NCBI GenBank assembly: GCA_951406725.2 | Contig: OX597832.1 | Coordinates: forward strand, 48,360,001 to 48,424,000 | Length of the DNA: 64,000 nucleotides | Reading direction: 5' to 3' | Origin: Octopus vulgaris | Lineage: Eukaryota | Part shown: positions 30,660-42,937 of the stretch, one piece after another | Layout: each line of letters starts with the position of its first letter | How positions within the stretch are numbered: the stretch's first letter is position 1 | Position numbers and translations under genes: made by a program | Notes under the pieces: model-generated | The model's database searches: none | Told to the model about the DNA's origin: nothing | The model's input: only the letters and a program-made list of their open reading frames with translations

Positions 30660-31410
30660 AGACGTCGAGCTGGCAGAATCGTTAGCATGGCGAGCATAAC
30701 GCTTAGCGATATTTCGTCTGCTGCTACGATCTGAGTTCAAATTCCGCCGACGTCGACTTTGCCTTTTATCCTTTCGGGGTCGATTAAATAAGTACCAGTT
30801 AAGCACTGGGGTCGATATAGTCGACTTAATCCGTTTGTCTGTCCTCTCTGTGTTTAGCCCCTTGTGTGTAGTAAAGAAATAGGTATTTCGTCTGCTGCTA
30901 CGTTCTGAGTTCAAATTCCGTCGACGTCGACTTTGCCTTTTATCCTTTCGGGGTCGATTAAATAAGTACCAATTAAGCACTGGGGTCGATATAATCGACT
31001 TAATCCGTTTGTCTGTCCTTGTTTGTCCTCTCTGTGTTTATCCCCTTGTGGGTAGTTAAGAAATAGGTATTTCGTCTGCTGCTACGTTCTGAGTTCAAAT
31101 TCCGCTGAGGTTGACTTTGCCTTTCATCCTTTCGGGGGTCGATTAAATAAGTACCAATTAAGCACTGGGGTCGATATAATCGACTTAATCCGTTTGTCTG
31201 TCCTTGTTTGTCCTCTCTGTGTTTATCCCCTTGTGGGTAGTTAAGAAATAGGTATTTCGTCTGCTGCTACGTTCTGAGTTCAAATTCCGCCAACGTCGAC
31301 TTTGCCTTTTATCCTTTCGGGGCTGATGAAATAAGCACCAGTTATGCGCTGGGGTCGAGATAATCTACTAGCTCGCTTCTCTCCAAATTTTCAAGGCCTT
31401 GTCCCTTGAG
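30660..31410 (+). mobile_element. SINE family B tetramer (one head, four bodies)
   Basis: Three internal AAGAAATA|GGTATTTCGTCTG junctions. Confidence 0.9.
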
Positions 31411-39789: not shown

Positions 39790-41312
39790 ATGTTATTCAA
39801 TGGGCAGAGATTCATACTATGCACGCCAACGAAAAAAAAAATGAACAACCTAATCCACTTCGGGAAAGAAGTGGATTAGGTTGAATTCCAACAACCATAC
39901 ACTCATCCGTCGGGCGAAACCCTCGTGGAATCCAGCACTGCTAGAGACATGGGTGTTACTGTTGACAAGAAAATAAGCCGGAGTGCTCACATAAACAGCA
40001 GAGTTGACATGGCTCGCAAGGCGTGTTCCTAGATGATAGGGACTCTCCGGTCTAGAGATGCCCCTACCTTTATTCTACTTGTCTGTACTTTCGCTCGACC
40101 TCACCTTAAATATTGTTCTCCGCTGTGGTCCTCCCAGAATATTATGAAAACTGAGGCTTCCTAGAGATCAAACCCTCCCCCCCCCGTCAAATATAGATGG
40201 CATGACAAGCCTTGACTATTGGGATCGACTCGAAAAGCTCAGGCTTTACTCCCTCCAACGCCACCGTGAGCGCTATATCATTTGTATGATAAGGCGGCGA
40301 GCTGGCAGAATCGTTAGCGCGCCGGGCGAAATGCTTAGCAGTATTTCGTCTGTCGTTACGTTCTGAGTTCAAATTCCGCCGAGGTCGACTTTGCCTATCA
40401 GCCTTTCGGGTCGATAAATGAAGTACCAGTTACGCACTGGGGTCGATGTAATCGACTTAATCCGTTTTATCTGTCCTTGTTTGTCCCCTCTATGTTTAGC
40501 CCCTTGTGGGTAGTAAAGAAATAGGTATTTCGTCTGTCGTTACGTTCTGAGTTCAAATTCCACCGAGGTCGACTTTGCCTTTCATCCTTTCGGGGTCGAT
40601 AAATGAATTACCAGTTTCGCACTGGGGTCGATGTAATCGATTAATCCGTCTGTCTGTCCTTGTTTGTCCCGTCCCCTATGTGTTTAGCCCCTTGTGGGTA
40701 GTAAAGAAATAGGTATTTCGTCTGCCGTTACTTTCTGAGTTCAAATTCCTCCAAGGTCGACTTTGCCTTTTATCCTTTCGGGGTCGATAAATGAAGTACC
40801 AGTTTCGCACTGGGGATCGATATAATCGACTTAATCCGTTTGTCTGTCCTTGTTTGACCTCTCTGTGTTTAGCCCCTTGTGGGTAGTAAAGAAATATATA
40901 TCATTTGCATGATGTGGAAAATATTCCATCCATAATACCCAAATGGTATAGCTATCGTCTTTAAAATACAACTGAGGCTTGTCCCCCGTGCCAACCGTTT
41001 ATTACAGAAATCATGTTCATGTCATACCACAACACTACGACAGAACTATTTCACCTCAACTGGCCCTACTCTCTTCAACATCGTACCAGCCCACATAAAG
41101 AAGAAAAGTGATTTCACGACATTCAAACGGGCCCCAGATGATTATCTCGAACAAATGCCAGAGAAATCACCCACACCCGGATATATCTCGGAAAACAATA
41201 ACTCTCTGCTTGAATGGGCTGTGGTGCCCAAGAGCTGACTGTATTTCCTCCAGGTGGTGCTATTAAATCAGACATGGCCTGGGCCACCTTCGGCCGAAAC
41301 TCATCTAAGTAG
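39790..41312 (+). mobile_element. CR1/L2-group LINE 3' fragment (RT C-terminal region), interrupted by a SINE trimer
   Basis: RDMGVTVDKKISRSAHINSRV…TFARPHLKYCSPLWS…LDYWDRLEKLRLYSLQRHRERYIICM, then the SINE, then MWKIFH; stops and frameshifts present. Confidence 0.8.
40291..40896 (+). mobile_element. SINE family B trimer with 17-bp TSD
   Basis: TSD TATATCATTTG(T/C)ATGAT at 40274-40290 and 40897-40913. Confidence 0.92.
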
Positions 41313-41447
41313 CAAAGTGTGTATGTATATGTACATATGTATATATGATTATATTGCTTATACATATACATACATATACATATGTATATATATATATATA
41401 TATAATAATAAATCTCTGAGCGAGGTATAAACAGTAACTGCTCTGTA

Positions 41448-41838
41448 ATATAAGCGGGACCAGCCATCTGAATGTGGCTAGGGACAGGGCGGGGTGATGG
41501 GGGTGTTACTGATGCATTTAGCCCCAGGCGACTATAGACGTCACCAGAAGAGCCGACACCATCACGGTGTCCTTGCTAGCCTGTAAAGGGAGATCAGCCT
41601 CCCCGAAGATACGGATGCTACACACGGACCGATGCGCTGACGAGAGGCGACCACCTCGAAACCGGTCCGTGTGTAGCATCCGTATCTTCGGTGAGGCTGA
41701 TCTCCCTTTGCAGGCTAGCAAGGACACCGTGATGGTGTCGGCTCTTCTGGTGACGTCTATAGTCGCCTGGGGCTAAATGCATCAGTAACACCCCATCACC
41801 CCGCCCTGTCCCTAGCCACATTCAGATGGCTGGTCCCG

Positions 41839-41845
<7 letters not shown>
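41448..41845. mobile_element. GC-rich fold-back element (arms 41448-41631 and 41663-41845), probably an inverted Penelope-like pLTR
   Basis: ~184-bp arms differing by two substitutions and one indel, 31-nt spacer, set between (TA)n tracts. Confidence 0.9.
41632..41672 (+). ncRNA. Minimal type I hammerhead ribozyme
   Basis: atgcg CTGACGA GAGG cgacca CCTC GAAAC CG GTC cgtgt: complete core, G-C closed stem II, palindromic stem III ACCGGT, predicted cleavage after C41667. Stem I contains two G-U pairs. Confidence 0.8.
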
Positions 41846-41882
<37 letters not shown>

Positions 41883-41921
41883 CAAACAAACATGCAGACA
41901 CACACACACACACACACACAC

Positions 41922-42856: not shown

Positions 42857-42894
<38 letters not shown>

Positions 42895-42937
42895 ATATTT
42901 CGGAATGGTCATATTGCCAGTTTAGCCAATATATATG

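Follow-up and report, generated by a model that had tools for sequence, protein, structure and literature searches.

In the 64,000-nucleotide stretch of Octopus vulgaris DNA analysed here (contig OX597832.1, positions 48,360,001 to 48,424,000; hereafter the window, in whose numbering unprefixed coordinates are given), a long hairpin carries a hammerhead ribozyme core at its apex. This raises the question of whether hairpin and ribozyme form an element in their own right or came together by accident. The hairpin itself is reproduced as originally predicted, with the arms at 41448-41631 and 41663-41845 aligning over 184 columns with three differences (two substitutions and one 1-nt indel), a spacer of 31 nt, and a GC content of 56% in the left arm. 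Our answer, to which we give a probability of roughly 0.85, is that the window holds a single shortened head-to-head insertion of a 360-bp hammerhead retrozyme, that a Penelope-like element (PLE) likely supplied the enzyme, which would have nicked the two strands at a (TA)n target and used retrozyme RNA as template on either side, and that the stem is predicted to hold the clipped ribozyme in a locked state.

The sequence belongs to a tandem repeat family. When 41400-41845 was used as a query against the genome (2.8 Gb in 227 contigs), the best 40 of 2322 candidates yielded 193 matches, many of them spaced by 359-360 bp. Family loci carry tandem arrays with a 359/360-bp period and one type I hammerhead in each unit, with as many as 7 hammerheads within one locus. 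Taking L033:3875-4234 as the reference unit, with position 1 as the first base after the cut, we found 246 exact genome matches for a 26-mer from the unit and 98 for the core motif, to which older subfamilies add more. The longest stop-free frame over three periods of the unit is 85 codons, no ORF for a reverse transcriptase (RT) plus GIY-YIG endonuclease is present in it, and it folds better than 100 of 100 shuffles with the ribozyme left free (z -3.4). The element is a tandem 360-bp non-LTR retrozyme, and the window copy, which is shorter than one unit, is a sub-monomer stub of it. The predicted young, non-autonomous hammerhead element is thus young, non-coding, inverted and Penelope-like in behaviour, but in place of a hairpin family there is a tandem retrozyme. 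A retrozyme copy is called "active" in the main-text portions of bioRxiv 10.64898/2026.07.22.740005 when it has two consecutive units with complete hammerheads; such pairs are present in other family loci and absent in the window copy, which has one clipped hammerhead. By analogy with other retrozymes, the hammerhead of intact arrays likely cuts multimers into monomers able to circularise. Among public runs recorded as RNA, none was listed as holding the family; contigs of two presumed-RNA public runs touch it, although contigs cannot demonstrate expression.

Read against this unit, the whole insertion spans 41404-41845 and consists of two arms. The inverted arm, or B arm (41404-41631, minus strand), runs from unit position 356 to 223 and finishes at the tail end, while the forward arm, or A arm (41632-41845, plus strand), runs from unit position 325 to 179 and finishes at the tail-less end. 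They meet head to head at 41631/41632 in a blunt junction with 0-nt microhomology, and the 184-bp stem with its 31-nt loop (41448-41845) arises where they overlap. Sequence to the left of the left arm, which had been taken for unique, is indeed present down to 41404 but belongs to the element as its own tail: these 44 bp (41404-41447, minus strand) remain unpaired in the hairpin, on one side only, and lie between two recurrent family ends, A (179-181) and B (222-228). The insertion sits in (TA)n, as predicted, with a TA-rich target flank on the left (41322-41403) and a (TA)n flank on the right (41841-41876), the target duplication being unreadable at this copy. The arms differ at family-polymorphic positions 25 and 43 and share the remaining background. 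This makes an origin from one template doubtful, and the two differences may reflect two template units, a conversion tract or a polishing error. As predicted, there is no credible gene, since the 150-codon stop-free stretch that overlaps the left arm extends into the microsatellite.

As for the ribozyme, all parts of a type I core (41632-41672, plus strand) are found where they had been placed: ATGCG (41632-41636), CTGACGA (41637-41643), helix II (41644-41647/41654-41657), GAAA (41658-41661), the palindromic ACCGGT of helix III (41661-41666) and C17 (41667), after which cleavage is predicted. The description "intact" fits this core but not the flanking helix I, which is reduced to 5 bp. Since the arm begins at unit position 325, it lacks unit positions 314-324, which form the outer 5' strand of helix I, and the inverted arm stands in their place. 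Helix I of intact units passes an internal loop and continues into a long stem, and the outer helix I region provides the helix I-helix II contacts required for efficient cleavage, according to the relevant parts of PMC4209133. The original assignment to the minimal PLE type does not agree with the helix lengths, which are those of a canonical type I hammerhead. Helix II has 4 bp, and in intact units the 6 bp of helix I are followed by a long extension, in contrast to 7-8 bp and 4-5 bp, respectively, given for Schistosoma PLEs in the same portions. What the family shares with the minimal hammerheads described there (Cervera and de la Pena 2014, PMC4209133) is the type I topology and a short palindromic helix III, which could permit dimeric cleavage. 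Rfam hammerhead models gave no match at the gathering score over the window and none at E up to 10 over 41400-41900, and the weak Rfam miRNA matches trace to the stem and to TA runs; the identification therefore rests on the motif and on stem changes among related families. In such families of the same genome, the core is kept, the paired helices differ and the palindromic helix III measures 6, 8 or 10 nt. Across a small sample of nine related sequences from three of these families, 91% of helix cells are paired and 8 show two-sided change, with lower values in slid controls. The hairpin at about 41276-41300 has no CTGANGA and was therefore discarded as a possible second hammerhead.

The RNA had been proposed to be either an inactive rod or an active ribozyme. 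Forcing helices I and II in the window copy is predicted to cost 15.5 kcal/mol in the shortest nascent transcript and 23.9 kcal/mol in longer ones, against about 6 kcal/mol in an intact unit (9 for its shortest transcript) and 6-10 kcal/mol when the left arm is removed. Sequestration of the cleavage strand by the long stem is thus borne out in these models, while the active state appears unlikely, given the lost helix I strand and the high folding penalty. Because the left arm would be transcribed first, no folding window is expected, and the ribozyme of the window copy is predicted to be inactive, locked within the stem. That the hairpin is nevertheless functional or self-propagating, either as a ribozyme switch or as a rod-like double-stranded RNA kept for its structure, is in our judgement highly improbable. 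Its catalytic core is complete and, if transcribed, it would form a very stable double-stranded RNA (-406 kcal/mol). However, the apex is single-copy and family junctions are scattered, the copy lacks the outer helix I, and its active fold is about 18 kcal/mol costlier than in an intact unit. Furthermore, arm divergence (3 in 184) is close to the family's within-locus mean of 1.4%, and an ORF scan recognised no host exon near the hairpin.

Inversion at the ribozyme had been put forward as a feature of the element, which the genome does not bear out. Searching for the window apex with up to one mismatch returned 1 match, the window copy itself, and a family with the same apex was rejected since the junction sequence is single-copy. 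Among 50 simple two-arm copies (four complex copies were excluded), junctions are spread around the unit. Stops within the 62-nt ribozyme zone occur in 6/50 A arms and 7/50 B arms, which is no excess over the 17% of the unit that the zone occupies. Both stops lie there in three simple inverted copies, the window copy among them, and in none of the 30 later ones. There is no pile-up of truncations at the cleavage site, with 3 of 100 arm stops within 5 nt and about 2.8 expected. Many arms run through this site, from which we infer that the templates were uncleaved multimers or circles, in agreement with portions of PMC11167929. The window stops at unit positions 325 and 356 presumably fell inside the ribozyme by chance.

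What is constant in the family is the pair of outer ends. Among 71 loci, comprising all those with a tail-less (A) end in (TA)n, 54 are inverted and 17 are not, and in all 54 inverted copies the opposite end is B, the tail between A and B measuring 44-49 nt. A set of 47 loci on five contigs (C1-C5), picked by an internal 26-mer and not by end type, contains 19 simple A+B inversions, 3 inversions with one unclassifiable end, 7 complex loci and 18 non-inverted copies. No simple A+A or B+B inversion occurs among these 47 loci; one complex locus is scored A+A owing to an extra fragment. The non-inverted copies end at A (6 copies), at B (11) or elsewhere (1). A (TA)4 tract is found at an end of 65/72 A/B loci, many of which were chosen for a TA end, and the C1-C5 set, chosen without it, has the same flanks. 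Target duplications of 12-14 bp are readable at about 11 of these 72 loci. Separately, L112 and L167, on different contigs, are two distinct retrozyme insertions within the same flanking sequence, probably at one site of another repeat.

The shared ends bear directly on whether the window hairpin could be a fold-back artefact of assembly or library preparation, a reading that we find scarcely credible. The two ends of the insertion differ by the 44-bp tail, at the same two sites as in dozens of loci, several of which have clean target duplications, and the flanks are not mirrored past the TA sequence. It is true that polishing with reads of other copies could yield the two arm differences at family-polymorphic sites, and that the junction is not bridged among the contig pieces listed for four public runs (part of 1900 pieces). 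Loose contig ends listed at 41632, likewise within this part, show normal unit sequence, which proves nothing. The window hairpin is real but of ordinary origin: an inverted stub, and a dead end, left by a young retrozyme family.

The inner stops of the two arms are not independent of each other. Arm lengths correlate with a rho of 0.62 in the first 20 copies and 0.64 in the later 30 (p 1e-4), and in 24/50 copies, versus 11 expected by permutation, the B stop follows 0-60 nt to the 3' side of the A stop (13/30 versus 6.5 in the later set, p 0.005). Stops within 60 nt in the opposite direction occur in 4/50. The idea of coupling preceded the later 30 copies; the 60-nt bin was set afterwards, and the rank correlation is independent of it. 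The coupling is loose, since 26/50 copies fall outside the expected-direction bin and the B arm is much longer than the A arm in about 13/50.

A single antisense strand that folds back and primes itself, with staggered endonuclease cuts at A and B leaving the one-sided tail, would offer another route to such copies. Self-priming was proposed for Penelope inverted junctions in portions of PMC3846280, and endonuclease resolution was suggested as the source of the tail in portions of PMC8557442. We regard this route as unlikely, without dismissing it. It would fit the position of the loop, which lies in the A arm in the 24 copies of the 0-60 nt bin (11 expected) and on the opposite side in 4. It would also fit the junctions, 18/50 of which show microhomology of at least 2 nt versus 16% by chance, with 11/50 blunt and 14/50 containing inserted bases. 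Finally, the arms of a locus are usually of one haplotype, differing in 35/1214 polymorphic-site comparisons (2.9%; 65 loci) versus 25% between loci, although later conversion between arms could produce the same sharing. However, the window copy has a blunt junction, no tail on the arm that holds the loop, and two family-polymorphic sites at which its arms disagree. Moreover, non-inverted copies, too, end at A or B (17/18), and L134 joins arms from two subfamilies that differ at 6/13 diagnostic sites. Fold-back cannot join two different RNAs, and a chimera of retrozyme and PLE exists. Two templates are needed to explain this chimera and the copies of mixed haplotype. As a separate observation, the same inversion junction (positions 11/235) recurs in L143 and L144, which lie 160 kb apart on C16, and the A and B ends are on opposite arms.

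In the chimera (L255:4070-6633, with further copies L256 and L257 on C28 and L258 on C2), a retrozyme arm stands head to head with a truncated PLE. The C28 copies have common flanks and vary in the number of retrozyme units, and the C2 copy has the common junction, so that the four loci probably represent one event. The retrozyme arm finishes at A, and the PLE arm at that PLE's own tail end. This PLE is 5'-truncated and codes for an RT, a cysteine-rich linker, which points to the Neptune or Nematis type described in portions of PMC8557442, and a C-terminal endonuclease-like region. Its family is young, with 40 of 40 scored candidates at 99-100% identity, and two outward ends occur in 17 of 26 of its stretches, 14 clearly A+B and 3 A+B by eye. 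The protein matches a GIY-YIG-positive 781-aa PLE protein in both the RT region (E 2e-11) and the endonuclease region (E 0.004). Pfam detects GIY-YIG in the 781-aa family; in the family of the chimera, it gave a weak RT match and no GIY-YIG. Three observations were made alongside. A pseudo-LTR of the chimera's PLE family (L261:3131-3375) contains a hammerhead-like motif with the non-standard core CTGATGCG in place of CTGANGA; this pseudo-LTR has a tail of about 55 bp and is in frame with an open frame of 1310 codons. The window itself harbours, at 42887-42931 (minus strand) and in (TA)n, a 45-bp remnant of the tail-less end of this family. A second young PLE family (L250:430-5672) has a 781-codon RT plus GIY-YIG frame, present in full in many copies, together with an upstream open frame and 456-bp direct repeats.

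The expected link to an RT plus GIY-YIG partner is supported by one chimeric event with an RT-coding PLE. No homology of the unit to an autonomous pseudo-LTR was found by low-stringency BLAST in 62 stretches around RT/GIY-YIG matches, which comprise the GIY-YIG matches plus two PLE families, some loci twice, and cover a minority of the PLE families of the genome; the same search returned only fragments of sister repeat families. With no autonomous element carrying the unit sequence in these stretches, the partner link rests on that single event. An ORF at L259, 1.5 kb from a sister-repeat fragment, was rejected as a partner, the intervening sequence being unrelated. The sister families (L045:3540-4325, L041:609-691, L264:6034-6482 and L259:5590-5813) are older and have a similar tail, several of them carrying hammerheads with differing helices; for the L045 family, at least 40 loci are present, with identities of 81-89%. 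It is likely that the retrozyme family is moved by Penelope-like elements.

The two-end rule, the arm coupling and the chimera fit two-sided priming at two RNA sites. In such a scheme, a Penelope-like enzyme would nick both strands of a (TA)n target, with cDNA synthesis starting at site A from one of the nicks and at site B, which lies 44-49 nt to the 3' side of A, from the other. Both cDNAs would copy an uncleaved multimer or circular RNA across the ribozyme, both extensions would halt early and often near each other, and their joining would yield a hairpin whose loop is whatever separates the two stops. Portions of PMC11167929 report in vitro experiments in which a Penelope-like protein cleaved and extended the two strands, with start sites at either boundary of the tail. 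The same portions report no strand difference in start sites, which by itself leaves the strict A+B rule unaccounted for. A tentative extension, to which we give somewhat less than even odds, is that a PLE dimer on one RNA always primes the two strands at A and B, and that the paired polymerases travel together, often stopping within 60 nt of each other. The young RT plus endonuclease PLE would, on the evidence of the chimera, be the engine, and the retrozyme family would be a record of PLE integration.

How does this compare with known systems? Tandem type I hammerhead repeats are described as non-LTR retrozymes, with PLEs proposed as their carriers, in portions of Cervera and de la Pena 2020 (PMC7229834). 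Like the metazoan elements in the parts of these sources that we draw on, the octopus family has a non-coding tandem unit of 360 nt (within the 150-450 bp class) with one type I hammerhead, dispersed monomers and multimers, target duplications of more than 4 bp, a self-paired fold with the ribozyme free, and coexisting PLEs. It differs in its head-to-head inversions, two fixed ends and chimera with an autonomous PLE, features undescribed in the main-text portions of PMC7229834 and bioRxiv 10.64898/2026.07.22.740005, and in being known from DNA, with cleavage and circular RNA as predictions. For Xenopus, 1 of 9 dimers tested was found to cleave (Li, Clavereau and Pollet, bioRxiv 10.64898/2026.07.22.740005, in part). 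Insertions of endonuclease-bearing PLEs, as far as portions of PMC3846280, PMC8557442 and PMC11167929 describe them, resemble the octopus copies in that an inverted 5'-truncated copy lies adjacent, only one end bears a tail, the targets are (TA)n or AT-rich, and there are two start sites and target duplications. In contrast to them, the retrozyme has no ORF, its tail measures 44-49 bp rather than 30-40 bp, and its unit matches none of the pseudo-LTRs in the PLE families that were examined. In the main texts of a mostly open-access literature, we found no report of this family or of a strict two-end rule.

Other repeats lie near the insertion. The segment 40940-41310 looks, by its motif, like the 3' end of a LINE (the C-terminus of its RT), with a short GC hairpin in the putative 3' UTR, and public contigs cover it very deeply. 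One tandem repeat family with a unit of 184-188 bp forms three arrays, at 890-1440, 30710-31369 and 40341-40896, none of which contains a hammerhead motif.

The window hairpin itself is debris of a known process, and the family is of modest importance. What moves animal retrozymes, and by what route inverted one-tailed PLE insertions arise, are stated as open questions in portions of PMC7229834, PMC8557442 and PMC11167929, and the strict one-A-one-B rule, the coupled arm lengths and the chimera provide a defined template of 360 nt, together with an enzyme candidate, with which both could be tested. It is these three features that merit a specialist's attention. For the octopus, dozens of long hairpins per genome may, if transcribed, supply editing or small-RNA pathways.
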